Below are positions 1 to 27,299 of a DNA stretch of 64,000 bases, one piece after another. The notes under the pieces were generated by a model. That model saw only the letters and a program-made list of their open reading frames with translations, had not been told where the DNA came from and made no database searches. The stretch's first letter is position 1. Every line of letters begins with the position of its first letter. The stretch is from an uncultured Eubacterium sp. (GTDB lineage: Bacteria; Bacillota; Clostridia; Lachnospirales; Lachnospiraceae): assembly GCA_910579075.1 (NCBI GenBank), contig CAJTSV010000001.1, positions 11,304 to 75,303 of the forward strand, read 5' to 3'. Both the position numbers and the translations under genes were made by a program.

Positions 1-70
1 TTTTTGCCGCAGCATATTCAAATCCCTCTGTTTCCAAAAAGCCGGAAATGTCCTCTATCTGCCTGTCCAT
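1..70 (-). CDS. 5' end of an unidentified CDS leaving the window (MDRQIEDISGFLETEGFEYAAAK...)
   Basis: ATG at 70 (minus strand) with AAGGAGA about 12 nt upstream. The frame stays open to the window edge. Too short to classify. Confidence 0.3.
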   Translation of the reverse strand, partial: MDRQIEDISGFLETEGFEYAAAK

Positions 71-127
71 ATAGAAATTTATTCTCCTTTATGATAATCT
101 GCGCGGTTTCGGCTCAGATTTATGGCA

Positions 128-493
128 TTATTCATACACTTTCTGTACAGCATCTTCTATCCTTTGCAGCATTGGAATCAACAGTTTTTCCAATGCTTCG
201 GCGATTTTAGCATCCTCCTGCGTCTGCAAAGCTCCTGCAAAGGCCATGACCGCATCATTAATCCTTGTCTTGTTCAATACTTCTTCTTTTTCGTTAATCA
301 AATCCAGCGTATTTCCCAATATGCTCATTTCCCAGTTCACGGCGTCTGTTACACTTTTTAACAGTTTATCCGTATCTGGCTTTCTGCAGATTTTCAGTTC
401 ATTCATTAACAATCCTGCATTTCCGATAATTTTGTCCTGAAAATCTCCCAATACCTTTAATGCCTCTATCTGTTCTTTCCTGTTATTTTCCAT
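128..493 (-). CDS. hypothetical small helical acidic protein (121 aa)
   Basis: Clean ORF in the same orientation as the island. No motif recognised. Confidence 0.5.
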   Translation of the reverse strand: MENNRKEQIEALKVLGDFQDKIIGNAGLLMNELKICRKPDTDKLLKSVTDAVNWEMSILGNTLDLINEKEEVLNKTRINDAVMAFAGALQTQEDAKIAEALEKLLIPMLQRIEDAVQKVYE

Positions 494-607
494 GTTCTCT
501 CTCCATTTCTCTTTTATCTTAACCTAAATCTTTAACATAACTTTCCTACTGCTCAGACATCCTACTGCTTTTTAAAAACTGCGCCGCATAGGGCCCTTCA
601 TTAAAAA

Positions 608-1261
608 TCAAATCCAAAACAGATACGCCATGCTCAAATGCTTCCGATAACTGTGTATATTGCGTTTTTCATCTTTTACTGCAATGCATCCGCCTTCGCC
701 CATGCTGTAATTTTTCGTTTCATGAAATCTATAACATCCATAGTCGCCGATTGCTCCCAGAGCTCGTCCTTTATATGTACTCATGACACCCTGGGCTGCA
801 TCCTCAATAACAGTCAGATGATGTCTTTTTGCAATGTCCATAATCACATCCATCTCACAGCCGACCCCTGCATAATGAACGGGTACAATCGCTCTGGTTC
901 TGCCTGAAACGGCTGCTTCTACCTTCTGCTCATCAATATTCATCGTATCTGGCCGGATATCGACAAATCTGATTCTGGCTCCACGCAGTACAAATGCATT
1001 TGCTGTAGATACAAAAGTGTATGACGGCATAATCACCTCATCTCCCGGTTGGATATCTGCAAGCATTGCAGCCATTTCTATCGCATGTGTACACGATGTG
1101 GTCAGAAATACCTCACCCTTTAAAATTCCACTCCAGCGCTTCAGCCAGAAGCTGCAGCGTCTTGTAAATTCACCGTCTCCGCTGAGTTTTTTATTATGAA
1201 TAGCTTCCCTGACATAGCCAAATGCATTTTCTAGGCAAATCGGTTCGTTAAAATTTATCAT
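608..1261 (-). pseudogene. C-terminally truncated DegT/DnrJ/EryC1/WecE-type sugar aminotransferase
   Basis: The N-terminal 200 aa match the fold-type I sugar aminotransferase pattern (TSCTHAIEMAA, DEVIMPSYTFVSTANAF, VHYAGVGCEMD, IEDAAQG, FHETKN with the PLP lysine). The text then degenerates (NIHSYRKHLSMAYLFWI) and stops at 217 aa, against about 370 aa for the family. Only about 115 nt remain before the next gene. Confidence 0.6.
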
Positions 1262-2759
1262 GCTTATTTTCCCCCGATATCGATAAATCTCCGCTTGTTC
1301 TCCTTTGAAATTCCTCTATTATACTTTGTAATTCTTCTGGAGTATCAATTAATGTTTGTGCTCTTTCTTTTGCGAGTACCGACATCTTTTGGTAAAATTC
1401 TGCATCATCCTTATACTTTCTGATTAAATCCGGCATCGTATCGTAGGATTCCGTACAGAATTCTTTTCCAGCACATACTGCCACATCACCATAATCCATG
1501 GTAATAACAGGCAATCCTTTTAATAATGCATCAGTAGCAGAAACTCCTCCTCCTACGCGGTACGGATTAACATAAACATCACACACTTCAAGCCAGGCAA
1601 GTAAATCTGCTGAATATCCAAGATACTGCACCTTATTCCGCAGTCCTGGCATCATCTGCATATATTTTTCATACGAATGAAATCTGGTGCCGATAGCCGC
1701 TGCTGCCATATCTTCATCCAGCACACGCTCCAGCATCTGCATAAAGCTTTCATCTATTTCACTGTCCAGCCGGTTTCCTGCAACAGCCACTATAAACTTG
1801 TTCTCTGGCAGCTTCAGCTCTTTTCTTGTTACTACTGATTTTTGCATATCAGGATTTACTTTCGGCTGAATCGGAATAATACTTGTTTCTTTTATCCCCA
1901 TTCGGCCCAGCAGCTGAAGCTCTGCTTCTTCCAGCTTTCCGCTTAATGTCTGGCAGCTTGTCATCGTCTCCTGTAAATTTCCGGTTGTGCCATATGTCAG
2001 CACAGGTATCATTTTATCAATCAGATTCGCCAATATGCTGCCGCCTCCAATCGCTATTACCAGTCCAGGCTTTACATTCATGACTGTTTGAAGCAGTGCG
2101 CGTAAGTCTGCTGTATTGGGCATATTATTTTCACACTGGAAATAAGGAATGTCCGCTCCCTTCCACGCAATCGATTCTTTGTATAAATAGCTGTCAATAT
2201 ATTCTGAATAAAACGGTTTATAGAACACGATTTCAATAATTTTAGATAAAAATTCAGCTGTATTGATTACCAGCACTTTTTTATGCATATGCTCCATCAG
2301 AAATTTCGCTTTATCAAACGCCATTTTTGTCGGAGCATGAAAACCGCTCAAAATCTGAGGGACAATCACAAAAACGAGATTCTGATTTCTCTGTTCATAT
2401 GGAATATATTTTAATAAATCCTGTGTTTCATTTTCATAAGAGCTTACAATCTGCTCCAGCAATTTCCATCTTAAATATTTAGAATTACTATTATCATAAC
2501 TGCGATAGCTGAACGACAGCGATGCTATTTGATTATATAAATAAAATTTGAGATTCGGTTCAAGCTTCCGTTCATCTATTACATATTTTATAAACTCCTC
2601 CATGACCTTTGCACTCTGTGTTTCCTCCAGCATCACAGAATACATCCAGACCCTGATAAGAGGTTTGCTTTCTAACAGCATAGCATGAAGCCTGCCTAAT
2701 ATAGTTTCTTTGTTTTCTTTTATTTCTTTTTCCATGATTCCAATCAATGTATTCATCAT
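1248..2759 (-). CDS. putative flagellin-glycan glycosyltransferase with a GT-B (GT41/SPINDLY-like) C-terminal domain
   Basis: The C-terminal segment VAVAGNRLDSEI...VQYLGYSADLLAWLEVCDVYVNPYRVGGGVSATDALLKGLPVITM is paralogous to the C-termini of 13028..14344 and 15861..18599. The true 5' end is uncertain (see finding at 2759-2865). Confidence 0.55.
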   Translation of the reverse strand: MMNTLIGIMEKEIKENKETILGRLHAMLLESKPLIRVWMYSVMLEETQSAKVMEEFIKYVIDERKLEPNLKFYLYNQIASLSFSYRSYDNSNSKYLRWKLLEQIVSSYENETQDLLKYIPYEQRNQNLVFVIVPQILSGFHAPTKMAFDKAKFLMEHMHKKVLVINTAEFLSKIIEIVFYKPFYSEYIDSYLYKESIAWKGADIPYFQCENNMPNTADLRALLQTVMNVKPGLVIAIGGGSILANLIDKMIPVLTYGTTGNLQETMTSCQTLSGKLEEAELQLLGRMGIKETSIIPIQPKVNPDMQKSVVTRKELKLPENKFIVAVAGNRLDSEIDESFMQMLERVLDEDMAAAAIGTRFHSYEKYMQMMPGLRNKVQYLGYSADLLAWLEVCDVYVNPYRVGGGVSATDALLKGLPVITMDYGDVAVCAGKEFCTESYDTMPDLIRKYKDDAEFYQKMSVLAKERAQTLIDTPEELQSIIEEFQRRTSGDLSISGENKHDKF

Positions 2760-2892
2760 CGCTGTCAGTTTTTCTGATACATAATCGGGATGTAAATCTA
2801 TCTCTTTTTGGATAAGTTCACACAGTTTGAATGCTTTCTCAAAAGCCCCATAATTTTCCCCCTCCTTTCATAAATTTTATCATCTGATTATA

Positions 2893-4929
2893 TTAATCAT
2901 AAATACACAAATGCACAATATGCCCTAAAATAATGGACAGATACTTTTGATACAATTCTTCATTTTCCAGGTCATTTCCCTCTAAATCTGCCAGCCTTAC
3001 CCAGCAATCTTTCAGATAGAACCTGCCATCATCCTGTACTGGAAAAGAATTTCTAAAGTAAAATACACAATCCTTCGCATAAATAGCCGCCTGATAAGGG
3101 TCTCCCGGATGGAGGCTTTCTGTAATGGCATATTCCCGTCCTTCCCCTCCAAATGCCTTTGGCAGCATTCCATCAATTTTTATGTCTTTCATTCTAATGT
3201 CCGCAAGCCTGCACATGATTTTTATATAATCACATGTGGAAATCAGCTCATTACATACCTGGCTTTTCACGCCATCTCCCCGGAACATAAATGCTACTCT
3301 GGTGCGTCCCTCAGAGCAGAAATGCTCTCCTTGCGGCACCAGATATCCCTGCCCATGGTCTGCGTACAAAGAAACCAAAATGTCTTCATTCTTATAATTG
3401 CGTTCAATATACTGATATACCATGTTTAACAAAGCATCGATTCGTGTTGCCATTTTTTCATACCAAATGCGTTTATTATCGCTATAATCTTGTTTTACAG
3501 ATGTAAAACCCATTTCTTCATTTGTATAATTTGTGATATCCAGACGACTCTGGACTGACACAGGCATGTCAAATCCATCTGCAATATCATGTAAATCACC
3601 AATGCATACTCCTAAAACCTGATTTGTCTCTTTGAACGCTTCAATATGGTCAACGATTTCGCCCGCTAATTCCTGTGCACGAAATCCAACTGTACCATGC
3701 TGATAAATATACTGGTCACATCCTCTGCCATATCCATGCAGCGGAATGGCTCTCCAATTTCCAGTCATTTCAGAAGTAAAGTAGCCTTTTTCATGAAAAT
3801 ACTCTGTCAATGTCGGGTATTCCAGCGGCAATGCCCCATCAAGAACATTATGGAACAGCATATGATGTGCCGTATATAATCCAGTCGCATAGTTTGCAAT
3901 ACTCGGATATGTCCACTCTGCGGCACTGTATGCCCTCGTGCAAATAGTCCCTTTTTCAAAAAAAGCTGCTGTAAACGGCATCCGTTTTTTGAATTTTTCC
4001 CCATCCAGTATGCACTGGGCAAGACCATCTACAAATAAATTAAGTATTAATTTTTTTCTTCCCTCTTTCTGGTGCATCAAAACAGGTCTTCCATAATAAG
4101 ACTTTCCAGAAGAATATATCGTACTGTCTGGCGGAATGCGGTAATAATTAAAATGTCTGCTGACTGACTGCTTCAACTGATATTCATGATTCGAATGCAA
4201 AATTTTATGTATAGTATTATCATTTTCTGATGCAACTGGCAAAAGCACATCGGAACTTCCATCTTCAACATAAAATTCATTGCCCTCTGTTACCTTTATA
4301 AATTCCCCTTTTATATGCAGCAAATCACGATTGTTATCATAATCTCTTGTCAATACATGATCCCAGTAAATACCTGCATATTTCTTTTTGTAAACCGATT
4401 CCCAATAATATTGTCCTAAAATCTGTTCAGGGCTTCGAAAGGCTCTTTCATTCAAGCCCCATTTCTTTCCAACCCAGTATTCATACCCCGCATGCTGCCG
4501 GCTGTCTGTTCCGGTCTCATGCTTTATGCTGCATAAATACATCCGCTGTTTTAATCCCAGCTTTTCAATTTTCTGCTTTAATTTACAGTACTCATATAAT
4601 GTTAATGCACGCCCATAAGACATCCATGCCAAAAACCATTCTTCTTTCTGCTCATATACGCATCCTAAATTATACTGCAAGTCCCCATTACAAGGATATT
4701 TCCGGACTCCTTCCAGGGCATGCTGCAAAGCGGCGTCTACATTTCCGCTATACAAGTCAAACATTGTTTCCATGGCAGACACATCCAAATCAGCCGGACA
4801 TTCCTCTTTATACTGTTCGATAAGCTTTGCCGCTTGCACCAGCTCTCCTGTCTGTAAGGCCCTTTGTACAAACAGCTTTATGACGCTGACATGCCCTCTC
4901 CTGACAGCAAGCATCTCCTGAATATCCAT
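2893..4929 (-). CDS. TPR + alkaline-phosphatase-superfamily (NPP/phosphodiesterase-like) protein; distal part of a gene split by an in-frame TAA
   Basis: TPR-like N-terminus (ALQTGELVQAAKLIEQYKE..., NLGCVYEQKEEWFLAWMSYGRAL). AP-superfamily motifs are present: LNLFVDGLAQ, EWTYPSIANYATGL, GDLHDIADG, SLYADHGQGY. About 75-80% identical to 5468..7963. No TM segment or signal peptide seen. Confidence 0.65.
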   Translation of the reverse strand: MDIQEMLAVRRGHVSVIKLFVQRALQTGELVQAAKLIEQYKEECPADLDVSAMETMFDLYSGNVDAALQHALEGVRKYPCNGDLQYNLGCVYEQKEEWFLAWMSYGRALTLYEYCKLKQKIEKLGLKQRMYLCSIKHETGTDSRQHAGYEYWVGKKWGLNERAFRSPEQILGQYYWESVYKKKYAGIYWDHVLTRDYDNNRDLLHIKGEFIKVTEGNEFYVEDGSSDVLLPVASENDNTIHKILHSNHEYQLKQSVSRHFNYYRIPPDSTIYSSGKSYYGRPVLMHQKEGRKKLILNLFVDGLAQCILDGEKFKKRMPFTAAFFEKGTICTRAYSAAEWTYPSIANYATGLYTAHHMLFHNVLDGALPLEYPTLTEYFHEKGYFTSEMTGNWRAIPLHGYGRGCDQYIYQHGTVGFRAQELAGEIVDHIEAFKETNQVLGVCIGDLHDIADGFDMPVSVQSRLDITNYTNEEMGFTSVKQDYSDNKRIWYEKMATRIDALLNMVYQYIERNYKNEDILVSLYADHGQGYLVPQGEHFCSEGRTRVAFMFRGDGVKSQVCNELISTCDYIKIMCRLADIRMKDIKIDGMLPKAFGGEGREYAITESLHPGDPYQAAIYAKDCVFYFRNSFPVQDDGRFYLKDCWVRLADLEGNDLENEELYQKYLSIILGHIVHLCIYD

Positions 4930-5004
4930 AGCTATAGCAGCTTCTGTTTCAAGTCTGCTTTCATTTTCCGCATTCAGGTTTATATATAATACTTCTCCAA
5001 TATT

Positions 5005-5382
5005 TTAATATAACTCTTTAAGATATGCCGTTTGCTGCTGGTCCTGACAGATAATAACGGTATTCTGATTACCGCATTTCAGCTTTTCTTCATATTTATA
5101 AAATCCCCCCGATTTCCCCAAAAACGAAATATACATACAATCTGGCATTTCGGATATTTTCTCTATTTCAGCTGCATTGCATGTAATAACAGCTTTGCAA
5201 TCTATTTCTTTTTCCATGGAATGAATATATTTTTTCAATTCATCCATAAAAGTATCGCTGTCTTCCTGTAAAGTTTCCGTTATAAATCCCAGCTGCTCAA
5301 AAATTGTACCCAGCTCTCCAAGCATTTCAGATTCAGCTGGGTACATTGTTTTATTCATAAGCAGCAATAATTTACTTTCCAT
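5005..5382 (-). CDS. N-terminal module (125 aa) split from the downstream TPR/AP-superfamily gene by a TAA codon
   Basis: Aligns residue-for-residue with aa 20-145 of the 850-aa ORF 5468..8020 (MESKLLLLMNKTMYPAE.. against MDNKLLLLMNKTMYPAE..). The stop at 5005..5007 is in frame with the ATG at 4929. Confidence 0.6.
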   Translation of the reverse strand: MESKLLLLMNKTMYPAESEMLGELGTIFEQLGFITETLQEDSDTFMDELKKYIHSMEKEIDCKAVITCNAAEIEKISEMPDCMYISFLGKSGGFYKYEEKLKCGNQNTVIICQDQQQTAYLKELY

Positions 5383-5467
5383 TTCTGTCTCCTCAGCATT
5401 TTATTTTTAACCAATTTCAAAATTTCCCTGAAAACACACCAGAATTACAAATACTCTCTGTTCTATA

Positions 5468-7963
5468 TTAATCATATATACACAAATGTGCAATATGTTC
5501 TAAAATAATTGACAGATACTTTTGAAGCATATCTTCATTATCCATATCATTTCCTTCCAAATCTGCCAGCCTTACATAACAGTCCTTCAGATAAAACCTT
5601 CCATCATCCTGTACTGGAAAAGAGTTTCTGAAATAAAATACACAATCCTTCGCATAAACAGCTGCCTGGTAAGGGTCTCCTGGATGAAGGCTTTCTGTAA
5701 TGGCATATTCCCGGCCTGCTCCGCCAAATGCCTTTGGCAGTACGCCATCGATTTTTATATCTTTCATTTTAATATCTGCAAGCCTGCACATAATTTTTAT
5801 GTAATCACATGTCGAAATCAGCTCGTCACAGACCTGGCTTTTGACACCACTCCCCCGGAACATAAAAGCTACCCTGGCACGCCCTTCTGAACAAAAATGT
5901 TCCCCCTGCGGTACCAAATACCCTTGTCCATGATCCGCATATAACGAAACCAGAATATCTTCACTGTCATAATTGTTTTCAATATACTGATAAACAATAT
6001 TCAATAGAATATCCAGCCTTGTCGCCATCTTTTCATATCGAATTCGTTTATTATCACTATAATCCTGCTTTACCGAAGTAATCCCTGTTTCCTCATTCGT
6101 ACAGTTTGCAATATCCAGCTGGCTCTGAACCATATCAGGCATTTCAAATCCATCTGCAATGTCATGCAGTTCGCCAAAACACACTCCTAACACCTGATTG
6201 GTTTCTTTAAATGTTTCAATATGGTCGATTATCTCGCCAGCCAGCTCCTGGGCCCGGAATCCTAATAATCCGTGCTGATAGACATACTGATCACAGCCCC
6301 TGGTATAGCCATATAATGGTATTGCTCTCCAATTTCCAGTCAGTTCAGATGTAAAATAACCTTTTTCATGAAAATATTCTGTCAGAGTTGGATATTCTTC
6401 AGGCAGCGGAATATCCATCGTATTATGAAACAGCATATGATGTGTAATATCCAGACCAGTCGCATAGCTGGCAATACTCGGATATGTCCACTCCGCTGCG
6501 CTGTATGCTCTTGTACATACAGTCCCTTCTCCAAAAAACCTGGCCGTATAAGGCATGATTCTTTTGAAGTTCTTCCCATCCAGCACGCTCTGAGCCAGGC
6601 CATCCACAAACAAATTCAGAATTAATTTTTTTCTTCCTGCTTCCTGATGCAGAGGAATCGGTCTTCCATAATACGACTTGCCCGATGAATATACCCTGCT
6701 GTCTGGCGGCAGCCGGTAATAAGTGAACTGCTTGTTAACTGACTGCTTTACCTTATACTCATTCCCCAAATGAAGAATTTTGTGAATAGTACCGTCATTT
6801 TCTGCTGCAATTGGCAAAAGCACATCTGCTTTGCCGCTCTTGATATAAAATTCCTCTCCTTCAGTTACTGTAACAAACTCTCCTTTTGTGTGCTGCATAT
6901 CCAGCTGATTATCATAATACCTTGTCAGCACTTGATCCCAGTATATTCCAGCATATTTTTTCTCATATAGGGATATCCAATAATATTTTCCTAATATCTG
7001 CACAGGATCCCGAAATGCTTTTTCGGTCAGTCCAAAATTTTTTTCCAGCCAGTAATCACAGCCTGCATTATTTTTATCTTTTAACCATATTTCATGTTTT
7101 TCCTTGCAGACATATAGCCGTTTATTCAATTCCAGTTTCTCTATTTTTCTATTTCTATTTCCCTTGGTATAAAAAGCAAATGCACGTCCATAAGATATCC
7201 ACGCTAAAAACCATTCTTCTTTCATTTCATAAATGCTTCCCAGATTATAATATAAATCTGCATTACATGGGTACTTATGAACACCTTTTAAAGCATGCTG
7301 CAGAGCCAAATCAATATTTCCACTATATAAATCCAGCATGGTCTCCATTGCAATAACATCTAAATCTAACGGACATACGTTTTTATACTGTATGATTAAT
7401 TCCTCTGCCCGTTGTAAGTCTCCTGATTCCAGCGCTCTTTGTGCGAATAATTTCAAGATACTGGCCTGTCCACGCCTGACAGCAATCAGCTCCTGAATGT
7501 CCATCGCCATTGCAGCTTCTGCTTCAAGCCTTCCGCCACTTTCCAGTACTAAATCTGCATAGAGTACTTCTCCAATATTTTTATAATTTTCTCTGATATA
7601 CCCTATCCAGCTTGAATCTTGGCAGAAAATAACCGTATTTCTATTTCCATATTTTAATTTTTCTTCATATGCCTGAAAACTATGTTCTCCTTTCCCCAAA
7701 TATGTGATATAAAGACAGTTATCAGGCATTTCTGAAATGTATTCTATTTTATCTGCATTACAGGTAATAACAGCCTTGCAGTCTATCTCTGTCTTCATAA
7801 AAATAAAATATTGTTTCAGTTCATCATTGAAAGTACTATTGTCTGTCTGCAGCACTTTCAGTTCAAATCCCAGCTGATCAAATACCTGTCCCAGTTCTCT
7901 AAGCAGTTCGAATTCAGCTGGATACATTGTTTTATTCATCAACAGCAATAATTTATTATCCAT
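5468..7963 (-). CDS. intact N-terminal module + TPR + alkaline-phosphatase-superfamily protein (831 aa from the ATG at 7963)
   Basis: Same motifs as the paralogue: LNLFVDGLAQ, EWTYPSIASYATGL, GELHDIADG, SLYADHGQGY. I chose the start at 7963 because it matches the paralogue N-terminus and has a GGGAGAAAGG RBS. The ORF track start at 8020 adds 19 unmatched residues. Confidence 0.7.
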   Translation of the reverse strand: MDNKLLLLMNKTMYPAEFELLRELGQVFDQLGFELKVLQTDNSTFNDELKQYFIFMKTEIDCKAVITCNADKIEYISEMPDNCLYITYLGKGEHSFQAYEEKLKYGNRNTVIFCQDSSWIGYIRENYKNIGEVLYADLVLESGGRLEAEAAMAMDIQELIAVRRGQASILKLFAQRALESGDLQRAEELIIQYKNVCPLDLDVIAMETMLDLYSGNIDLALQHALKGVHKYPCNADLYYNLGSIYEMKEEWFLAWISYGRAFAFYTKGNRNRKIEKLELNKRLYVCKEKHEIWLKDKNNAGCDYWLEKNFGLTEKAFRDPVQILGKYYWISLYEKKYAGIYWDQVLTRYYDNQLDMQHTKGEFVTVTEGEEFYIKSGKADVLLPIAAENDGTIHKILHLGNEYKVKQSVNKQFTYYRLPPDSRVYSSGKSYYGRPIPLHQEAGRKKLILNLFVDGLAQSVLDGKNFKRIMPYTARFFGEGTVCTRAYSAAEWTYPSIASYATGLDITHHMLFHNTMDIPLPEEYPTLTEYFHEKGYFTSELTGNWRAIPLYGYTRGCDQYVYQHGLLGFRAQELAGEIIDHIETFKETNQVLGVCFGELHDIADGFEMPDMVQSQLDIANCTNEETGITSVKQDYSDNKRIRYEKMATRLDILLNIVYQYIENNYDSEDILVSLYADHGQGYLVPQGEHFCSEGRARVAFMFRGSGVKSQVCDELISTCDYIKIMCRLADIKMKDIKIDGVLPKAFGGAGREYAITESLHPGDPYQAAVYAKDCVFYFRNSFPVQDDGRFYLKDCYVRLADLEGNDMDNEDMLQKYLSIILEHIAHLCIYD

Positions 7964-8037
7964 TTCAGCCTTTCTCCCATGTATCCGCCTATGGCAAATA
8001 TGTTCATTTTCTTTTGTCAAACACCCACTCTAACCAT

Positions 8038-8484
8038 CTACAGCATATATGTTAAATCTTTTATCATTGTCAGCCAGTTTTCCTTTCTGCAAATCACCCT
8101 GCATCCCTGCTCCTGGTAAAATCTGACTGCAGTAATGTTCTTCCCATATACCTCCAGCTTAATCTTAGAAATTCCCCGTATACATGCTTCTTTTTCTACA
8201 CATTCCCATAAAATTCTGCCTATCCCTTTTCCCTGAACTTCTGGCATTACTGCAATAGAACTAATATATGTACAAGACTGATTATTCATATATACCGCAC
8301 AATGCCCAAGTACTTTTTCTTTTTCATGTACATAAAACATTACTGCATTCTGTGCAAGCTTCCAGGCATAATCTTTTATATCAACACGCTGCGAAAGGGC
8401 TGGTACAAGCACTGTATCAAACTGTTTTAAAATTGTTTCGACTTTTTTTATTTCAACAGGCGGATAATAAGCTGCAATTTCCAT
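8038..8484 (-). CDS. GNAT family N-acetyltransferase
   Basis: Acetyl-CoA binding motif IAVMPEVQGKGIGRILW. 148 aa. Confidence 0.7.
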   Translation of the reverse strand: MEIAAYYPPVEIKKVETILKQFDTVLVPALSQRVDIKDYAWKLAQNAVMFYVHEKEKVLGHCAVYMNNQSCTYISSIAVMPEVQGKGIGRILWECVEKEACIRGISKIKLEVYGKNITAVRFYQEQGCRVICRKENWLTMIKDLTYML

Positions 8485-8496
8485 GTGAACCTTCTC

Positions 8497-9225
8497 CTAG
8501 GATATCGTATACCTGTCCAACAGATTCTTTACCTTTTCTTTTGAATTAAACATTAATACATCCAGAATAGATAATAATTCTACAAAAGAATTATCAAACT
8601 GCTGGTACACAATATTCTCCATCTGCAAAAATGACAGCTGAATGCCTTCCTTTTTAAATTCTTCTTTATCATACAAGGCTTTTCCACCATATGGATTCAA
8701 ATATTCATCAGCATCCAGCCTATGGCAGATTTCCAGAACTTTCTCATTTTTCTTTAACTCATGTCCAATCTCCAGTTTGGATGAAACAATTATTTCTGTA
8801 CCAATATCCAGATATTCTGCTATCTTCTTAACGGAATAAAATATGTATTCAAATAAATTTTCATTTTGACAATCAATGCATTCACAAAATAGCCAAAAAA
8901 TATTTTCAAAAAAAGGAGCTTTTTGATAAGCCATTTTAATCTGGTTCTTAATTTTCGCACGGTCAAAATTTGCTGCCGTCTTCCTATTTATAACATCTGA
9001 ATAGTCAGACGCTCTGGCTATTGGAATGGTGAAATATTTTGCCTGCCCATTACATAAATATCGATTTCGGTTAAACCATCCTTTTTTTGTATATTCAATA
9101 TTATCATAAATCACATATTTATCAACTGCGCGCAAAAGCTGAAAATATCCCAGATAAGGCCAAAAATACGGCTGCATAATTCCTATTCTCAAATTCTTCC
9201 ACCTTCTATTGTAACACCTTTCCAT
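8497..9225 (-). CDS. WbqC-family protein
   Basis: IMQPYFWPYLGYFQLL...KGWFNRNRY is the characteristic WbqC N-terminus. The start at 9225 lies just after the stop of the upstream gene. The longer ORF reaching 9357 overlaps that gene. Confidence 0.7.
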   Translation of the reverse strand: MERCYNRRWKNLRIGIMQPYFWPYLGYFQLLRAVDKYVIYDNIEYTKKGWFNRNRYLCNGQAKYFTIPIARASDYSDVINRKTAANFDRAKIKNQIKMAYQKAPFFENIFWLFCECIDCQNENLFEYIFYSVKKIAEYLDIGTEIIVSSKLEIGHELKKNEKVLEICHRLDADEYLNPYGGKALYDKEEFKKEGIQLSFLQMENIVYQQFDNSFVELLSILDVLMFNSKEKVKNLLDRYTIS

Positions 9226-9233
9226 TCGTATTG

Positions 9234-9977
9234 TTATGCCATCTTTGTACAGACACAATAAATACTTGAACACAATTCCGGGTACTGCTGCCCCAGAGAA
9301 AAACATCCATCCAGATATTCTTTTGAAATAATATCTGTCCCTAACAGCCTGTCCCATTGAAAATTTGCGAGTGCCTTAAAAAATATACCCGATTTATGTA
9401 TCACATTCAGCTCAGCATTTTTGATTTCAGACTCCAGCGTGTCCAGACTGTATGTAATCCTATGCCCGTGTGCCCGCTCTGCTTCTGTAACCGCTGCATT
9501 AGATTCTATGAGCCCCATTTTAACAGCAATTTGTCTGGAAGGTGCATTCGCATTCGGACATGCCACAAATAAAACCCCTTTTTCTGAAAGCCACTCATTT
9601 TTAATTTTTTTCAGCAGCTCCACGCGGTCATCTATATGTTCCAAGACGTGTGTTAAAAATATATTATCATATTTTTTATGTAATTTTGCTTCCTCAAACC
9701 GTGATTCCACGAATTCTATATGTCCATAAGGCTTTAAGCGTTCCCTCGCAATACAGACAGCTTCCCCAGATGCTTCCACGCATGTTATTTCATCAAATAT
9801 AGCTGCAATACGCTCTGTAAATGCCCCTTGAAAACAGCCCAGTTCTAATGCATTTCCTTCTTTTATAAATGGCAGAAATGATTTTATCATATATGGATGC
9901 ATGACATCAAAGTCAAAATGATATGCATATTTCCTTGTCTCATTATCCCTGCTTTCTGTATCATAATCTCGTTTCAT
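9234..9977 (-). CDS. class I SAM-dependent methyltransferase
   Basis: Motif I LELGCFQGAFTERIA, followed by ITCVEAS. 247 aa. Confidence 0.7.
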   Translation of the reverse strand: MKRDYDTESRDNETRKYAYHFDFDVMHPYMIKSFLPFIKEGNALELGCFQGAFTERIAAIFDEITCVEASGEAVCIARERLKPYGHIEFVESRFEEAKLHKKYDNIFLTHVLEHIDDRVELLKKIKNEWLSEKGVLFVACPNANAPSRQIAVKMGLIESNAAVTEAERAHGHRITYSLDTLESEIKNAELNVIHKSGIFFKALANFQWDRLLGTDIISKEYLDGCFSLGQQYPELCSSIYCVCTKMA

Positions 9978-10910
9978 TTATAATTTCTCCAATTCTGCTA
10001 ATCCAAAACCATTTTTTCCAAACTCATTTCCATTATACAGCAGATAGAGTTTCCCGTCCATTTCAAAAATATTAGGATAACACTGCATCTGACTGTCCCA
10101 TTCATCTTCCGCGATTGGAAAATTCAATTTCTCATCACATCTGTTCCAATGATTCAAAGAATCCGAACAAGCATATCCCAATCGGTAAGTATTATTTTCA
10201 TTATTACGAAAATCATATGAATATCTGTAGCAGAAAAACATATGATACTGGTTATTAAAAAAGATAACACATGGCAGTGCCTGCGACTCATCCTTTATCC
10301 TGTCTGGTATTATCTGCATACCATCCCTGCGCCAGTCAATGCCATCATGCGATACAGCATGCCCTATTTTATAAATCCGTTCTGGTTCATCTTCTGGCTT
10401 ATACTGCTTCCACTCTTTTCCATAAATATACCACATATGAAATCTGTCTTCAAACCATCTTACAAATGCATCAATCACTAAAAAGGGTTCATCCAGGGAA
10501 CTGGACATTACCGGGCCATCACCCAGTCTGTGGAAGCTCTTTCCGCCATCCTCCGATACTGCAATACCGATTCCAGTATCTACAGAGACAGAAACTCTCC
10601 TCGACCACCCGCTGGTATAAGCACATATCTTATTGTCAAATTGCAGCGGGCTGAACGGAAAAATACCATGTTCATCAAAACATCCCAGAGCCCCATCTGG
10701 AATAATCTGCTTTTGCACGTTTAAAACATCGGAAAAATCTTTCGTAAAATCTGCCAGGCAGACATAGCTAATCAATTTATTCTTATCATGTCTGCAAGCC
10801 GAAAAATAAATTCTGACAAAATCGTGAAATACTACTGCCTGTGGCGATTTTGCATATTCAATTCCATATTTTTCGGGAATAAATATCCTTCCATACTTTC
10901 TCCATATCAC
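9978..10910 (-). CDS. predicted beta-propeller, glycoside-hydrolase-like protein (GH32/43/68-clan-like), paralogue 1
   Basis: Repeated blade-like segments (SEDGGKSFHRLGDGPV, SHDGIDWRR, LYLLYNGNEFGKNGFGLAELE). About 40% identical to the neighbour 10907..11893. The family call is from memory of such propellers and was not searched. Confidence 0.4.
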   Translation of the reverse strand: MIWRKYGRIFIPEKYGIEYAKSPQAVVFHDFVRIYFSACRHDKNKLISYVCLADFTKDFSDVLNVQKQIIPDGALGCFDEHGIFPFSPLQFDNKICAYTSGWSRRVSVSVDTGIGIAVSEDGGKSFHRLGDGPVMSSSLDEPFLVIDAFVRWFEDRFHMWYIYGKEWKQYKPEDEPERIYKIGHAVSHDGIDWRRDGMQIIPDRIKDESQALPCVIFFNNQYHMFFCYRYSYDFRNNENNTYRLGYACSDSLNHWNRCDEKLNFPIAEDEWDSQMQCYPNIFEMDGKLYLLYNGNEFGKNGFGLAELEKL

Positions 10911-11893
10911 TTTAATTCTCCTTTCAATTCAGCGAGTCCAAATCCATATTTTCCCACTTCATTGCCAAGATACAGCATGTATGTTCTTCCATCGCAGACA
11001 AATACGTGTGGATATGCCGTCATCTCACTGTCCCACGCGCTGCTGTTCGAAGCCACATCAATTCCCGCCATAGCATCATTACGTTCCCAATGATATAAAT
11101 CCTCAGACCTTGCATATCCGATTCTATAGCTATTTGCAGGGTTTCTTCGAAAATCAGTATGATTCCGGTAGCAGAAAAACATATGGTATGCCTGATTCTG
11201 ATAAATCACATCCCCACATGCCTGTGACTCTGTCTCTCCAAGCCTGTTCTGCATAATATCACGGTTACACTTTTCCCAGTGAATACCATCTGTTGAAACT
11301 GCCATGCGAAGTTTATAACATATCTCCGGCCGGCCTTCTTCTATGCTCCAATATTTGCCAGCTGAATAAAACAAATACCATTTTCCATCGTAAATGCGGA
11401 TTTTAGGAGAACATATCATAAACGGTTCCTGCAGCGATGCTGTTAAAACCGGCCCTCTCCCTATCTTATAAAAAGATTCCCCACCATCTTCACTTACTGC
11501 ACAGCCAATAGATGCGTTAAACGGAACAGACTCGCATCTGGTAATTCCCCCATAATACCCAAAAATTTTACCCTGATACCGGACGACTGAAAACGGATAC
11601 GTTCCAAATTCATCAAACTCACCTAATCCCCCCAGTTCCAATACCGGTCGGTCTCCTATTTTTAATATATGGCAAGGATTTTCGCGCGCTAAATCTACAT
11701 AGGATATTCTGCTGACTGTCTGCCCAGACTCATCTGGTTTTTCCCTGCTGCAAAAATATACCCGGATAAAATCATCAAACAGCAGAGTATTCTCGCCCTG
11801 TGCAAAATTCCATCTCCAAGCTGGCCTTTGTTCACACTCTGCCGGATTAAATATAATCCCTTTCTTTTCCCATTGAAACATAAAAGCCTCCAT
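10907..11893 (-). CDS. predicted beta-propeller, glycoside-hydrolase-like protein, paralogue 2
   Basis: SEDGGESFYKIGRGPV, STDGIHWEK, YMLYLGNEVGKYGFGLAELK. Overlaps the paralogue by 4 nt (ATGA). Confidence 0.4.
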   Translation of the reverse strand: MEAFMFQWEKKGIIFNPAECEQRPAWRWNFAQGENTLLFDDFIRVYFCSREKPDESGQTVSRISYVDLARENPCHILKIGDRPVLELGGLGEFDEFGTYPFSVVRYQGKIFGYYGGITRCESVPFNASIGCAVSEDGGESFYKIGRGPVLTASLQEPFMICSPKIRIYDGKWYLFYSAGKYWSIEEGRPEICYKLRMAVSTDGIHWEKCNRDIMQNRLGETESQACGDVIYQNQAYHMFFCYRNHTDFRRNPANSYRIGYARSEDLYHWERNDAMAGIDVASNSSAWDSEMTAYPHVFVCDGRTYMLYLGNEVGKYGFGLAELKGELK

Positions 11894-11906
11894 TTTTACA
11901 GTACTA

Positions 11907-13022: not shown

Positions 13023-13027
13023 GAATC

Positions 13028-14344: not shown

Positions 14345-14493
14345 TAATCCGTAAACATGTGCCAGTTCATCCTCTTTTCTATTCTTCTTGTATGCCGTTT
14401 CTATTTTTGCATATTCTTTTAAAATGTGTACATATCGATAATCTAAAAATGCATTATTCTGTTCTGTATTTCTCAGATTATCTATACACGGTT

Positions 14494-15771: not shown

Positions 15772-15860
15772 TCAGCCACCCCACCATACCTGTATTTGTA
15801 ATCTATCCTGTTACCAGCATATTGTCATACATCCTGACACTCCTGACTTTATTGCCATCT

Positions 15861-20853: not shown

Positions 20854-21543
20854 TTAAGAAAAAATCTCCATTCTATAATATTGCTCTTTATATCCCATTT
20901 CAATGTTTTTATATCTTCTAAGAAAATCTCCTATATTATCATTCCAGCTAAATTTTATTTTTTCTTTCAGCATATCCAGTTCTTTTTTGACATGACAGCT
21001 TCCTTTTCCTGCCTGCTCTGTTAATGAATAACAGCCATCTTTCATTTCATCCCATTTTTCCTTCATTAATTCCACAATTTCTTTATTCAATTTGTCATAA
21101 GTGGTCTGTAATGTTTCCTTCTCAATGTCAAAAAAACACTGTTTTTGATACAATATTTTTCCAGTATCGAGTCCTTCATTTACCTGATGTATGGTTACTC
21201 CTTTTGGCGTGTCATCAATAAAACTCCATATATTTGGATTGGAACCGCGATTCCATGGCAGAAATGAAATGTGGAGGTTCCAGATTCTCCCATTCATATA
21301 TTCTATCAGTTCTCTGCTAATCAGGTATTTATAATTATAGCTGATAATAAAATCCGGCTTCAGATTCTGCAACTGGCACATCAGCAAGCGTTCACTATAT
21401 ATATGAACTGTTTCACGCTGTTTCAGCCAATGATACAAATCCAGAGAGTTACTGTTATTCGTTAAAAATAATACCCCCCCCCGAATTTGTTTCCAGTGTT
21501 TTAGATATAGCGCCACAGGCATCTGTTTCAATTTCATATACAT
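20854..21543 (-). CDS. formyltransferase-family domain protein; its own start is doubtful and it may be the C-terminal half of a GNAT-formyltransferase fusion
   Basis: Formyl_trans_N-like pattern: VLFLTNNSNSLDLYHWL, FIISYNYKYLI, NLHISFLPWNRG, HQVNEGLDTG. All in-frame ATGs lie inside the upstream GNAT gene and lack an RBS. Confidence 0.6.
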   Translation of the reverse strand: MYMKLKQMPVALYLKHWKQIRGGVLFLTNNSNSLDLYHWLKQRETVHIYSERLLMCQLQNLKPDFIISYNYKYLISRELIEYMNGRIWNLHISFLPWNRGSNPNIWSFIDDTPKGVTIHQVNEGLDTGKILYQKQCFFDIEKETLQTTYDKLNKEIVELMKEKWDEMKDGCYSLTEQAGKGSCHVKKELDMLKEKIKFSWNDNIGDFLRRYKNIEMGYKEQYYRMEIFS

Positions 21544-23804: not shown

Positions 23805-25661
23805 TTAATGAATTTCAAGCAGTGTTTCTTCTGCAAATTCTTTGAGTATCTGTGCACACTGCTGCAGCAGTTTTGCATACTTCATGCCCTGTTTTGATAT
23901 GGCTTTTCCTTCTTCTTCAATCGAATCCAGTGAAAACAGGCTTTCACTTTTGACAATAAGTTCACCAACCGTCATTGTCGAAGACACAATCTGGTACATA
24001 CTGTTTCTTTCGCACGTTTTTGTCATTTTCTTAACTTTTTTTAACAGTTTTTCATAATCTGCCCGGTTCATGTTTCTGGCCCTGCACATTAAATTTATCT
24101 TGTGGTAAGCGGTATAGAGCTTTTTCGCATCACGGTAAATATATGCGAACTGCTCTGGAATCGAATGCAGATATTCTACAACTTTATCACGTTCATCATT
24201 TATAAATTCTGGTTTTACATTTTGAATACATTCCTCAAAATTAATTTCTTCCTTTGGACACGTTGCTTCAATTGCATCACGCAGAGGCATTACCTCTGTT
24301 CCTTCAATATATGCTCCCCCAGCCGTTGCATTAATCACCCTGACATTTGGCCGGTGTTCTTTCATCCCTTTAATATGTGCTTCAAACCACTCTAAATACA
24401 TTTTCAAATTGCCAAGTGTTGGCAGTTCTTCTTCGTAATTTCCTTTTACCCGTATCATTCCATCTGTATTTTCTTCTGGCATTACATCTTTAAACGTGCC
24501 GTCTGCGTGAGAACGGTTATCTGTATATGCCAAATCCTGTCCTACCAGAATAATCGTATCAAATCCCATTTTATAGAGCAGTGAAAGACAAGTACATGCA
24601 ACAGACCCGCCGCTTGACAGAGATGGCAGTATCCTTCCAATAGCTGTATATGCATAATAAGCTAAGACATGACCGTCTGAATAAAAAAATTTCTTTCCCC
24701 TCTGTTCTTGCAGAATATCTGAATTAGCAGTAGCAGACGCAATAATTGGAATGTCTTTCGCCTCATCTGCCTGAACCAAATCCAGCGGTTTCATAGGATC
24801 AATTGTACAGAATGCATCAGGATGGATTCCCGCTCGAAGCAGTGGCTTCATCGCTGTATCGACTGCAAGGATAAAAGCCCTGTTTTTTGCTGCCTTCAGC
24901 TCCTGTATATTTTTATTTAAAGAAGGACCAGCTGCCACCAAAATTGCGGGCCTGTCATGAGGTACTGTCTGCATCAGGCATTTTACATGATATCCTTCAC
25001 ATAAATATTTCATATTTGCCATCTGGTTACGCGCCATATAAGTCGAAAAATTAACGCCTGTCATCTGATTTGAGACTACAAATTCTTCTCTTTTCTGAAT
25101 CAGCTTTGTTTTTTCAAACACTTTATCATAAAACAGTTCCTGGTAATTCGGATGAATTACCACTTTTAAGAACATCCTGTTTTCAAAAGACAATATTCTA
25201 CGGCATGCTGTGTCAAATGCAGCCTCATTCAACCCTTCCACTACAAAAATAATCGGACGATTTTCTATTTCACTGGATAAATCTACTTCGTTCAGCATTT
25301 GAAGAAAAATGGAAAGAGATGGCTCATATACAACAACAGCAACCGTCTTGTCCGATTCTTTTATCAGACGTTTTAAGTATATCCCGCTGCCTGTTCCAAG
25401 CAAAAAAACAGGAGCATATTTATGAATTTCTCCGAGATGCTCCATCCAGATATCTGCCGGTTCCCTGGCATTTCTTTTCCCATTCAGATACAAAAGACGT
25501 TCTCCCTGTTTCACCCGGAAAATTAATTCCCCATCCTGAGAAACCTCTTTTATAATTTCTAATTCATCTAATTTATAATCACCATTTCTCAGCTGTTCTG
25601 CAAACGCTGGATACCATTTTTCCATTGCCATTAAATTGCCATCCAATATTTCTTTACTCAT
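23805..25661 (-). CDS. maf: motility accessory factor (Maf, DUF115/MptE-like) putative flagellin pseudaminyl transferase
   Basis: Core AILVAAGPSLNKNIQELKAAKNRAFILAVDTAMKPLLRAGIHPDAFCTIDP. I prefer the start at 25661 (GGGGTGGA RBS; the ATG overlaps the upstream stop as ATGAGTAA). The ORF track starts at 25682. Confidence 0.8.
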   Translation of the reverse strand: MSKEILDGNLMAMEKWYPAFAEQLRNGDYKLDELEIIKEVSQDGELIFRVKQGERLLYLNGKRNAREPADIWMEHLGEIHKYAPVFLLGTGSGIYLKRLIKESDKTVAVVVYEPSLSIFLQMLNEVDLSSEIENRPIIFVVEGLNEAAFDTACRRILSFENRMFLKVVIHPNYQELFYDKVFEKTKLIQKREEFVVSNQMTGVNFSTYMARNQMANMKYLCEGYHVKCLMQTVPHDRPAILVAAGPSLNKNIQELKAAKNRAFILAVDTAMKPLLRAGIHPDAFCTIDPMKPLDLVQADEAKDIPIIASATANSDILQEQRGKKFFYSDGHVLAYYAYTAIGRILPSLSSGGSVACTCLSLLYKMGFDTIILVGQDLAYTDNRSHADGTFKDVMPEENTDGMIRVKGNYEEELPTLGNLKMYLEWFEAHIKGMKEHRPNVRVINATAGGAYIEGTEVMPLRDAIEATCPKEEINFEECIQNVKPEFINDERDKVVEYLHSIPEQFAYIYRDAKKLYTAYHKINLMCRARNMNRADYEKLLKKVKKMTKTCERNSMYQIVSSTMTVGELIVKSESLFSLDSIEEEGKAISKQGMKYAKLLQQCAQILKEFAEETLLEIH

Positions 25662-25992
25662 TCTTTGCATCCACCCCGTCATTTTCTTCTGTGATGAATA
25701 TATCCAACAATTCCCTCAAACCAAAGTCCAGCGTATCTATCATAAGCACCAAGTCTCTCTGACGCACTGCTTCCATGTAATCATTTAGAACATGCAGTAT
25801 ATAGTCCTGCAAACCTCTGCTTTCTTCCGTCTGCTCGCCCTCACTGATTCCCTGTATCATGGCAGAAGCAAACTGCTGAATCTGTCCTGCCAGTTTTTCT
25901 CCCTCCGTAACTGCGTCAAATTTATGCAGAAAATAATAATTAATGCAAATTATTCCGATTTTATCAGCCAGATTTTTTGCCAATACTTCCAT
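25654..25992 (-). CDS. hypothetical small acidic protein (112 aa), translationally coupled to maf
   Basis: First ORF after the fliC terminator. Its stop overlaps the maf start. Confidence 0.5.
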   Translation of the reverse strand: MEVLAKNLADKIGIICINYYFLHKFDAVTEGEKLAGQIQQFASAMIQGISEGEQTEESRGLQDYILHVLNDYMEAVRQRDLVLMIDTLDFGLRELLDIFITEENDGVDAKNE

Positions 25993-26096: not shown

Positions 26097-27299
26097 TTAC
26101 CCTAACAGAGATAATACGCCCTGTGTACTCTGATTAGCCTGTGCAAGCATTGACTGTCCAGCCTGTGCAAGAATATTATTCTTGCTGTACTCAACCATTT
26201 CAGAAGCCATATCTGTATCACGAATACGGGATTCTGCTGACTGTGTATTCTCAGCTACGTTATCAAGGTTTGCAATTGTATGCTCTAATCTGTTCTGGAT
26301 AGCACCAAGTGCTGACCTCTGGGAAGACACCTTGTTAATAGCATCCTGAATAGCATCAATAGAAGCGTTTGCAACCTGATAGTTATCTACGCCAACCATA
26401 CCTTTTGCAGTATATCCGCTCAACTGCACACCAGATGTAACCTTTGTCTCAAGGAAATCTGCAAAATTTGTTTTCAGGTCTTCTTCTGCCTTATCCATAG
26501 CAATGCTGAAATCTGCTGCTGCAACACTTGCTGATGTTCCAAATCTCTGGTTTGTCAGTTTGCCAATAAAATATACACTGCCTGTATCTGTATCAAACTG
26601 TGCAGCGTAAGTAGAAGCACGGTAAATAGAAGTGCCAAAGCGAAGGCTGATGCTTCCTAAAACTGCAGATATATTAGCACCTTTAGACAAACCTGTACTA
26701 TATATATGACTGGTACCTTTATACCTAACAACAGTAGGACCATTGCCATGCTGAATATCGCCTGCATACTCTTTATTAATTGTCTTTAATCCCAATGTCT
26801 GAGCATTCATGTTGCCGATACTGATACGAATCTTCTGATTTGAGTTTGCGCCAACCTGAAGGTTCTTGTTTGTAAATGTACCATCCAGCAAGTTCTGCTT
26901 ATTGAACTGTGTTGTCTGAGAAATTCTGTCTAATTCAGCTGTTAAAGCAGATAACTCCTGATTAATAGCATCGCGGTCGATTTCTTCGTTTGTATCGTTA
27001 GCACCCTGAACTGCCAGTTCATTCATACGCTGTAAGATAGAATGAGCTTCATTTAAAGCACCTTCAGCTGTCTGGATAAGAGATACACCATCCTGTGCAT
27101 TGGAAGAAGCTTTGTTTAAGCCGCGAACCTGGCTTCTCATTTTTTCAGAAATCTTTAAGCCTGCTGCATCATCGCCCGCACGGTTGATTCTGTAACCAGA
27201 AGATAACTTTTCAGAAGATTTAGCCTGTGAACCAGTTGTAACGCCTAACTGACGGTTAGCGTTCATAGCTGTGAGATTATGCTGTACTACCATTGCCAT
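26097..27299 (-). CDS. fliC: flagellin
   Basis: MAMVVQHNLTAMNANRQLG..SSEKLSSGYRINRAGDDAAGL..SLIQTAEGAL N-terminus. C-terminus is ..NILAQAGQSMLAQANQSTQGVLSLLG. The central region is S/T-rich. Confidence 0.95.
   Translation of the reverse strand: MAMVVQHNLTAMNANRQLGVTTGSQAKSSEKLSSGYRINRAGDDAAGLKISEKMRSQVRGLNKASSNAQDGVSLIQTAEGALNEAHSILQRMNELAVQGANDTNEEIDRDAINQELSALTAELDRISQTTQFNKQNLLDGTFTNKNLQVGANSNQKIRISIGNMNAQTLGLKTINKEYAGDIQHGNGPTVVRYKGTSHIYSTGLSKGANISAVLGSISLRFGTSIYRASTYAAQFDTDTGSVYFIGKLTNQRFGTSASVAAADFSIAMDKAEEDLKTNFADFLETKVTSGVQLSGYTAKGMVGVDNYQVANASIDAIQDAINKVSSQRSALGAIQNRLEHTIANLDNVAENTQSAESRIRDTDMASEMVEYSKNNILAQAGQSMLAQANQSTQGVLSLLG

Follow-up and report, generated by a model that had tools for sequence, protein, structure and literature searches.

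Soluble alkaline-phosphatase-superfamily proteins with TPR-like repeats, encoded in tandem within a Lachnospiraceae flagellin glycosylation island, as candidate head-group transferases

The 64,000-nt stretch of DNA analysed here (the window; positions 11,304-75,303 on the forward strand of contig CAJTSV010000001.1, assembly GCA_910579075.1, from an uncultured Eubacterium sp. of the Lachnospiraceae) carries a flagellin glycosylation island and, within it, two tandem paralogous genes, A and B, which lie on the minus strand as do all genes in that part of the window. To judge from their sequences, both genes encode soluble, cytoplasmic proteins that belong, within the alkaline-phosphatase superfamily, to the PF00884 branch and in which the catalytic domain is preceded by helical repeats resembling tetratricopeptide repeats (TPR) and by a beta-rich region. 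From sequence and genomic context together we lean, by a modest degree, towards the view that these proteins are soluble, flagellin-directed transferases of phospho- or phosphono-head groups, acting before flagellin is exported.

The two paralogues (the coordinates of these and other features are collected in Table 1) share 73.5% identity in protein and 75% in DNA sequence. The list of open reading frames (ORFs) begins A further upstream than we do, at TTG 8020; the ATG given in Table 1 has the Shine-Dalgarno-like sequence GGGAGAAAGG upstream of it, and a database protein 99% identical to A (P0001) is also 831 aa long. The initial annotation had described A and B as a pair of paralogues of about 830 codons each, and the tandem arrangement, its position and the shared domain order all stand, but B is broken by an in-frame TAA at codon 126. 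This stop cuts B into a 125-aa ORF corresponding to its N-module (5005-5382), which has a good ribosome-binding site, and a 678-aa ORF (2893-4929), upstream of which no recognisable Shine-Dalgarno sequence was found. Close counterparts of the region are present in two other loci, L079 (contig CAPDER010000002.1 of assembly GCA_948596855.1; 98.4% DNA identity to window positions 1-17960) and scaffold L080 (98.5% DNA identity to positions 1-5532), and the latter contains an intact orthologue of B (P0002, 99% identical) with CAA at codon 126. In the window strain A is the sole intact paralogue, B being switched off by the nonsense codon.

An AlphaFold2 model of A, built on a 22-sequence alignment (mean predicted local distance difference test score 87.4, predicted template-modelling score 0.82), consists of an alpha/beta N-module, about ten helices, a beta-rich region and an alpha/beta C-terminal domain, reproducing the order of domains that had been read from the letters alone. 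For the C-terminal domain the two paralogues score 50.5 and 56.1 bits against PF00884, for which the gathering cut-off is 25 (E = 2.4e-13 for A); the match covers profile positions 25-300 of 301, corresponding to residues ~488-749 of A and 316-577 of the 678-aa ORF of B, and the same domain is carried by 32/32 relatives recovered in a word-indexed protein search. When the modelled C-terminal domain was compared with the PDB using Foldseek, S1 sulfatases and the periplasmic domain of PbgA/YejM were returned with a probability of 1.00 (E ~1e-14 to 1e-12, template-modelling score on the target 0.5-0.7). Profile and model agree, then, with the earlier placement of this domain in the alkaline-phosphatase superfamily. 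Its further assignment to the nucleotide pyrophosphatase/phosphodiesterase (NPP) type has to be given up, since the fold is instead of the PF00884 sulfatase/EptA/LtaS type and the proposed threonine nucleophile falls on the sulfatase motif C/S-x-P-S-R...TG. Membership of the NPP family itself (PF01663) was considered and rejected, the match being both sub-threshold (cut-off 23 bits, scores 19.9 and 21.9) and partial (profile positions 4-80 of 342, at the N-terminal ~60-80 residues of the domain).

The remaining parts of the protein are less easily named. Pfam TPR models (TPR_17, TPR_14, TPR_11) give weak, sub-threshold matches to the helical region, while phmmer aligns it with the designed protein CTPR3 (E = 5e-4) and with the TPR domain of OGT (E = 2e-3). 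A hidden Markov model of the N-module matches the N-termini of CgeB-like Glyco_trans_1_2 proteins at four loci (L036, L037, L039 and L023), and for this reason we regard the module as a borrowed GT-B half-domain; the matches relate it by homology to the N-terminal halves of CgeB-like GT-B glycosyltransferases. It is also optional, most representatives of the family being ~670-690 aa long and beginning at the TPR region. No transmembrane helix or signal peptide was detected in either paralogue (highest Kyte-Doolittle 19-residue mean 0.98 in A and 1.1 in B), as had been noted at the outset, and a scan of 78 family members revealed no transmembrane-like segment (median of the highest mean 1.08, maximum 1.63).

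The four motifs first noticed in the C-terminal domain, LNLFVDGLAQ, EWTYPSIA(S/N)YATGL, G(E/D)LHDIADG and SLYADHGQGY, occur in both copies. We aligned 63 C-terminal domains, ranging down to 22% identity, and searched the resulting profile against PDB sequences. Residues D454, T493, G503, H600 and D677-H678-G679 are invariant in 63/63. Sulfatases were the first matches to the profile, with T493 falling on the Ser/Cys of C/S-x-P-S-R that forms formylglycine and the DHG aligning with sulfatase metal ligands; ENPP6 was matched at the DHG region. Where sulfatases have Arg, the 63 sequences have I, L, V or M, and the motif becomes T-x-P-S-[ILVM]. Formylglycine cannot be made from threonine, which serves EptA, LtaS and NPP as the nucleophile; because T493 is invariant at the formylglycine position, we take the protein to be an enzyme with a Thr nucleophile, as distinct from a sulfatase. 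The 'D..H' element of the initial annotation survives in its histidine (H600), but its aspartate (D604) is found in only 50/63 sequences. The candidate second-metal histidine, H760, is present in 43/63, and this lack of conservation argues for a single-metal site of the EptA/LtaS type and not the two-metal site of NPP. The conserved site looks mononuclear, comprising D454, T493, D677 and H678, plus H600.

Relatives of these genes are numerous and their neighbourhoods are informative. An exhaustive profile search among 1.84 billion proteins yielded 438 cluster representatives at E <= 1e-30, and a scan of GTDB species genomes yielded 70 loci, mostly in Lachnospiraceae (Roseburia, Agathobacter, Lachnospira, Petralouisia), with other carriers in Clostridium, Selenomonas and Paenibacillus. 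Cultured carriers include Roseburia inulinivorans DSM 16841 (L032), Lachnospira intestinalis (L020), Petralouisia muris (L058), Clostridium fallax DSM 2631 (L066) and C. hydrogeniformans (L068). All ORFs of these loci were clustered and the cluster representatives annotated with Pfam and NCBIfam; neighbours were then counted within 10 kb at the 54 loci that span 15 kb or more. Genes for Maf, flagellin, NeuB or a CMP-nonulosonic acid synthetase lie within this distance at 43 of the 54 long loci, and at L025 the gene next to that for the TPR-alkaline phosphatase (TPR-AP) protein encodes flagellin. A survey of this kind, asking whether the genes keep company with those for flagellar sugars elsewhere, had been recommended in the initial annotation, and its outcome is favourable.

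A head-group activation gene is found within 10 kb at 38 of the 54 long loci, often adjacent to the TPR-AP gene and co-directional with it, the two being separated by about -10 to +25 bp. The nature of the activation gene differs among loci. A fusion of phosphoenolpyruvate (PEP) mutase and cytidylyltransferase, accompanied by phosphonopyruvate decarboxylase (Ppd) and either an aminotransferase, for 2-aminoethylphosphonate (AEP), or an Fe-alcohol dehydrogenase, for 2-hydroxyethylphosphonate (HEP), occurs at 18 loci, and a short LicC/PntC-like nucleotidyltransferase at 17. Five loci carry a helix-turn-helix (HTH)-nucleotidyltransferase-choline/ethanolamine-kinase fusion; in L034 and L013 such a fusion, a LicC-like gene and a full BCCT gene immediately precede the TPR-AP gene. 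A fusion of nucleotidyltransferase and CobD-like threonine-phosphate decarboxylase is present at six loci and adjoins the TPR-AP gene in all of them, and a fusion of adenosine 5'-phosphosulfate (APS) kinase and methyltransferase is present at eight (L044, L046, L051, L054, L056, L058, L033 and L001), adjoining in seven. In the O-methyl-phosphoramidate pathway of Campylobacter the APS-kinase homologue Cj1415 makes a 3'-phospho-CDP donor, and a methylated phosphate-type head group is conceivable where the APS-kinase-methyltransferase fusion occurs. LicD is encoded at 6/54 long loci and was not found at 48/54. The initial annotation had suggested either a phospho-substituent transferase or a phosphodiesterase; profile, structure and context bear out that pairing, given the repeated adjacency of relatives to head-group activation genes, and the genomic context favours the transferase.

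Two Selenomonas loci present an unusual arrangement. In L073 (Selenomonas felix) and L075 (Selenomonas flueggei), four to six divergent copies of the catalytic domain are arranged in tandem next to Ppd; they are 22-28% identical to A and keep the nucleophile and metal ligands. The nearest mention found in the literature is a remark that AEP clusters of Selenomonas 'encode multiple sulfatases', which an inventory of phosphonate clusters attributes to phosphonolipids (PMC8942020); these sulfatases are probably the tandem relatives of the present family that we see in L073 and L075.

In the window, tblastn found no gene for PEP mutase, Ppd, an APS-kinase-methyltransferase or a nucleotidyltransferase-CobD fusion, and LicD gave no match at E <= 1e-3 in the window, L079 or L080. 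The donor module appears to be cut off by the edge of the window. L079 and L080 both run on beyond window position 1, and past the small gene at 128-493 they encode, in this order, a 310-aa protein of the choline/ethanolamine-kinase family, a 246-aa LicC-like nucleotidyltransferase and fragments of a BCCT transporter, as called from Pfam matches to APH/Choline_kinase, NTP_transferase and BCCT and from sub-threshold NCBIfam matches to BCCT. The beginning of the kinase gene is still within the window (Table 1). Given these three genes, phosphocholine or phosphoethanolamine is the candidate head group locally. Members of the DUF8042 cluster to which the small gene at 128-493 belongs, ~120-130 aa in length, adjoin the TPR-AP gene at L009 (12328-12729), L052 (9491-9874) and L069 (8128-8502), and this DUF8042-like protein could be a GlfM-like flagellin adaptor. 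A DUF8042 match was also seen at the N-terminus of Maf, weak in L005 and faint in L008.

In proposing a mechanism we take the chemistry of EptA and LtaS as a template, in which a metal-activated threonine forms a covalent phospho-intermediate that is then passed to an acceptor hydroxyl. The TPR-like region would hold flagellin, as TPR domains do in FlmG and Maf-1, while a metal bound by D454, T493, D677 and H678 would activate T493. The threonine would attack a nucleotide-activated donor (CDP-choline or CMP-AEP, or an analogue) at the phosphorus of its head group, so that the nucleoside monophosphate, CMP for example, departs and a covalent head-group-phospho-Thr enzyme results. This intermediate would be resolved by a hydroxyl group, either on the flagellin glycan or on flagellin itself, in a ping-pong reaction by analogy with EptA and LtaS. 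The acceptor may be the O-linked nonulosonic-acid glycan of flagellin, another sugar of the glycan, or Ser/Thr of flagellin directly. As the protein is soluble, the reaction would have to precede flagellin export. What the data give directly is the fold, the conserved catalytic residues, the lack of transmembrane helices and signal peptide, and the gene associations; the choice of donor and acceptor, and of transfer over hydrolysis, is inferred from these. The head group would vary by genome: here it is most likely to be phosphocholine (or phosphoethanolamine), whereas relatives may transfer 2-aminoethyl- or 2-hydroxyethyl-phosphonate from CMP donors, aminopropanol-phosphate, or the product of the APS-kinase-methyltransferase. 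A still more specific proposal, to which we would give somewhat less than an even chance, is that the family supplies the missing soluble transferase by which phosphocholine, phosphoethanolamine, aminopropanol-phosphate and, above all, 2-aminoethyl- and 2-hydroxyethyl-phosphonate pass from CDP or CMP donors onto flagellin or nonulosonic-acid glycans.

Several points weigh against a transferase of this kind. The functional assignment is an argument from guilt by association, and the count of 38/54 was drawn from gene-carrying loci only, so that the enrichment is uncontrolled. No donor module was found within 10 kb at 16/54 long loci, among them L005, which has a tandem pair, although a horizon of 10 kb undercounts, as the window itself counted among the 16 before the analysis followed it past its edge. 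Both L079 and L080 have the BCCT gene in fragments, and all NCBIfam matches for the kinase and nucleotidyltransferases are below their cut-offs and do not distinguish choline from ethanolamine or another alcohol. In the six loci that carry it, LicD could perform the transfer. To our knowledge, the characterised phosphotransferases of PF00884 all act on the outer side of the membrane with membrane lipids as donors, and we know of none that uses a CDP- or CMP-activated donor.

If these proteins do not transfer head groups they might remove them, as phosphodiesterases or nucleotide pyrophosphatases that trim or strip flagellin glycans of their head groups, or hydrolyse surplus nucleotide-activated donors, while another enzyme performs the transfer. 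Soluble members of the superfamily with a Thr nucleophile, such as NPPs and ENPP6, are generally hydrolases; the weak match to PF01663 and the match to ENPP6 at the DHG region point the same way, as does LicD in six loci. Against this, the 48 of 54 long loci without LicD would leave donor modules with no detectable transferase, although TagF-like enzymes were not searched for, and close operonic linkage to activation genes, like fusion to a TPR-like region that would bind protein, fits biosynthesis better than salvage or editing. We regard a hydrolase as unlikely, but as an explanation to be taken seriously.

It is improbable, though somewhat less so than the readings that follow, that the proteins act like EptA, LtaS or PptA on membrane phospholipids as donors of phosphoethanolamine, phosphoglycerol or phosphocholine, lying peripherally on the cytoplasmic side of the membrane and having nothing to do with the nucleotidyltransferases encoded beside them. 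The Pfam family, the nucleophile and the set of metal ligands are those of EptA and LtaS, and a housekeeping donor would be possible at the 16 long loci where no donor module is nearby. However, the hydropathy scan of the 78 members offers no means of membrane insertion, the adjacency to CDP- and CMP-type activation genes recurs among loci, and phosphonate head groups are activated as CMP-AEP (PMC6697681).

A catalytically inactive scaffold or adaptor in the manner of PbgA/YejM, gathering flagellin together with other modifying enzymes, might be suggested by the presence of PbgA/YejM among the top structural matches and by the additional modules (the TPR region and the GT-B half-domain), but a nucleophile and metal ligands that never vary in 63 sequences, with identities as low as 22%, argue for retained catalysis, and we consider this a very remote prospect. 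Finally, a sulfatase acting on a sulfated flagellin glycan or other substrate, for which one might cite the S1 sulfatases as best matches in sequence and structure and the APS-kinase domain genes beside relatives in eight loci, was rejected as scarcely credible because the nucleophile is invariably Thr and the formylglycine motif lacks its Arg, the protein being also cytoplasmic and no sulfatase-maturating enzyme appearing among the Pfam-annotated ORFs of the window, some short ORFs of which were not scanned.

Table 1. Features of the window that bear on the paralogous pair and its setting (positions are those of the window; aa, amino acids).
Feature	Position	Strand	Details and basis
Paralogue A	5468..7963	-	831 aa, intact; ATG at 7963, stop at 5468; ORF list, Pfam, AlphaFold2, Foldseek
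A, N-module (aa 1-135)	7559..7963	-	alpha/beta; DSSP on model
A, TPR-like helical repeats (aa ~142-293)	7085..7540	-	~10 helices in model
A, beta-rich region (aa ~320-440)	6644..7006	-	strands E326-E432 in model; no Pfam match
A, catalytic domain, PF00884	5471..6631	-	Pfam, invariant residues, sulfatase alignment
A, key codons	D454 6602-6604; T493 6485-6487; H600 6164-6166; D677-H678 5930-5935	-	invariant residues
Paralogue B	2893..5382	-	829 codons; domain order as in A; one in-frame stop
B, in-frame TAA, codon 126	5005..5007	-	CAA (Gln) in orthologues of L079 and L080
B, G6 tract in N-module	5105..5110	-	G7 (frameshift) in L079; G6 in intact L080
GT1-family glycosyltransferase, directly downstream of B	1248..2759	-	Pfam Glyco_trans_1_4, Glycos_transf_1
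Small helical protein	128..493	-	121 aa; PF26154 DUF8042 in gene-position index; no match with local Pfam copy
Choline/ethanolamine-kinase-family gene, start, cut by window edge	2..70	-	23 codons, 100% identical to kinase of L079
Maf-type flagellin nonulosonic-acid glycosyltransferase	23805..25682	-	Pfam MptE-like, E = 3e-43
Flagellin, presumed ultimate target	26097..27299	-	Pfam Flagellin_N and Flagellin_C

The setting of the pair is a flagellin glycosylation island, as was first proposed and as Pfam confirms through flagellin, Maf, NeuB/PseI, a CTP_transf_3 CMP-sugar synthetase and PseB-like and DegT/PseC-like genes, to which can be added two PseG-like GT28 genes, GNATs and a formyltransferase. 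Around the pair itself are a GNAT, WbqC, a methyltransferase, two GH32/130-like propellers, DegT and GT1-family enzymes. A late flagellar block was recognised by Pfam (FlgN, two FlgK paralogues, FliW, FlaG, FliD and FliS), and a 622-aa protein with a Flagellin_N domain is FlgL-like by our own assignment. The island (~1-38 kb) has a G+C content of 0.33-0.42 compared with 0.44-0.53 in the flank. Within it, between an ATP-grasp gene and the FliS/FliD block, lies a serine recombinase (33500-34126, minus strand; Pfam Resolvase, E = 1e-28), and this gene together with the rise in G+C beyond ~38 kb suggests a mobile or invertible hypervariable island. Paralogous duplication is seen elsewhere in the window: the two GH32/GH130-like beta-propeller proteins (310 and 328 aa; 9978-11893, minus strand) are encoded between the methyltransferase and DegT, and the two FlgK (hook-associated protein 1) paralogues (654 and 666 aa; 41683-45722, minus strand) are adjacent. 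A DegT aminotransferase fragment at 608-1261 (minus strand) covers profile positions 7-191 of 360, and at the corresponding position in L079 and L080 the gene calls give a 539-aa GT1+DegT protein; the fragment is either a disrupted fusion or the product of differing gene calls.

Breaks in reading frame recur across the island. Only three G/C homopolymers of at least 7 nt exist in the 64 kb (G8 at 14497-14504, G9 at 21474-21482 and G8 at 28115-28122, the coding strand being minus); all three fall within the glycosylation island, each where a reading frame breaks. The first divides ORFs of 425 and 438 aa, and L079 has G9 at this place and an intact 914-aa gene. In paralogue B, the shorter G6 tract of the N-module is G7, with a frameshift, in L079. 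The pattern resembles slipped-strand phase variation, known from Campylobacter and from pptA and here affecting genes that decorate flagellin, although homopolymer sequencing error could also produce it. The first tract belongs to a second tandem pair (13028-18599, minus strand), in which a 912-aa protein with an N-terminal TPR motif, GT2 and a GT1-like C-terminus (15861-18599) is followed by a split copy (425 aa, 14494-15771; 438 aa, 13028-14344); here, as with A and B, it is the downstream copy that is broken. Around the G9 tract the reading frames of a 165-aa PseH-like GNAT and a 229-aa formyltransferase share 89 bp (20854-21952, minus strand), and the two may be one frameshifted fusion gene. 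Between flagellin and NeuB are three consecutive short ORFs of 53, 110 and 72 aa (27515-28196, minus strand), the first junction lying at a G8 tract, which look like the remains of a single disrupted gene.

For a decoration of flagellin to which no enzyme has been assigned, the family provides a concrete, assayable candidate, encoded between flagellin/Maf genes and modules for phosphonate or CDP-choline-type donors. If the proposal is correct, these would be the first enzymes of the alkaline-phosphatase superfamily to use nucleotide-activated donors, and the chemistry of the superfamily would extend to the cytoplasm. Abundant gut commensals would possess a new class of flagellin modification, phosphocholine or phosphonate, such that the flagellins of many gut Lachnospiraceae, which are major immune antigens, would bear switchable zwitterionic phospho- or phosphono-decorations. 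The link between the modification and on/off switching would have possible effects on immune recognition of commensal flagellin and on phage receptors.

No account was found in the literature of a soluble, TPR-fused member of the alkaline-phosphatase superfamily, or of a family of this kind tied to flagellin, but the pair shares features with several known systems. EptA/EptC/PptA and LtaS/GacH also belong to PF00884, with a Thr nucleophile and a metal site of Asp/Glu, Asp and His, and enzymes of the EptA/LtaS/PptA type decorate surface macromolecules, including proteins. Those enzymes have an N-terminal domain with multiple transmembrane helices, act outside the cytoplasm and draw on phospholipid donors, whereas the present proteins have no transmembrane segment, are fused to TPR and beta-rich regions, and are linked to genes for nucleotide-activated donors. 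PptA acts on pilin, to which in Neisseria it adds phosphocholine or phosphoethanolamine from a donor described as unknown, and EptC acts on FlgG (PMC10434233, PMC10525099); no coexistence of PptA with the Lic-1 pathway is known (PMC10434233).

The S1 sulfatases carry C/S-x-P-S-R-x-x-x-x-T-G where the present family has T-Y-P-S-I-A-x-Y-x-T-G, and they rely on formylglycine and a maturation Arg, whereas here the corresponding residues are an invariant Thr and I/L/V/M, in a cytoplasmic protein. The NPPs (PF01663) resemble the family in having Thr in T-[FY]-P-x...TG and in their chemistry on nucleotide-linked or choline phosphodiesters, ENPP6 forming a phosphocholine-Thr intermediate; they differ in being hydrolases with a two-metal site, the second site of which is not conserved here. 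LicD has a role like the one inferred for this family and is likewise encoded beside LicA/LicC-like or PntC/PepM genes, but its fold is unrelated. It is the CDP-choline-dependent phosphocholine transferase of the Lic-1 pathway (PMC10434233), and LicD-like genes are also found in phosphonate tailoring clusters (PMC6697681). CMP-AEP was described in 2019 as the activated phosphonate donor made by PntC-type enzymes; the later tailoring of phosphonates was there called enigmatic, with LicD-like enzymes suggested, and the enzymes that pass CMP-AEP to glycans or proteins are poorly defined (PMC6697681).

Flagellin itself offers two comparisons. The type A flagellin of C. difficile (modification genes CD0241-CD0244) is an example from the Clostridia of an O-glycan with phosphodiester-linked and phosphonate substituents; CD0244 is annotated as glycerophosphotransferase-like, with a fold unrelated to that of the present family. 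Analysis of the C. difficile flagellin glycan detected 2-AEP without naming an enzyme for its addition, and the functions of cd0241, cd0242 and cd0244 are undescribed (PMC8861647). FlmG, Maf-1 and the GmaR-type proteins are cytoplasmic and have a TPR module fused to a catalytic domain, comparable to the TPR-like region here, the catalytic domain in their case being a glycosyltransferase, and the TPR domains of FlmG and Maf-1 bind flagellin (bioRxiv 10.1101/2023.12.03.569772).

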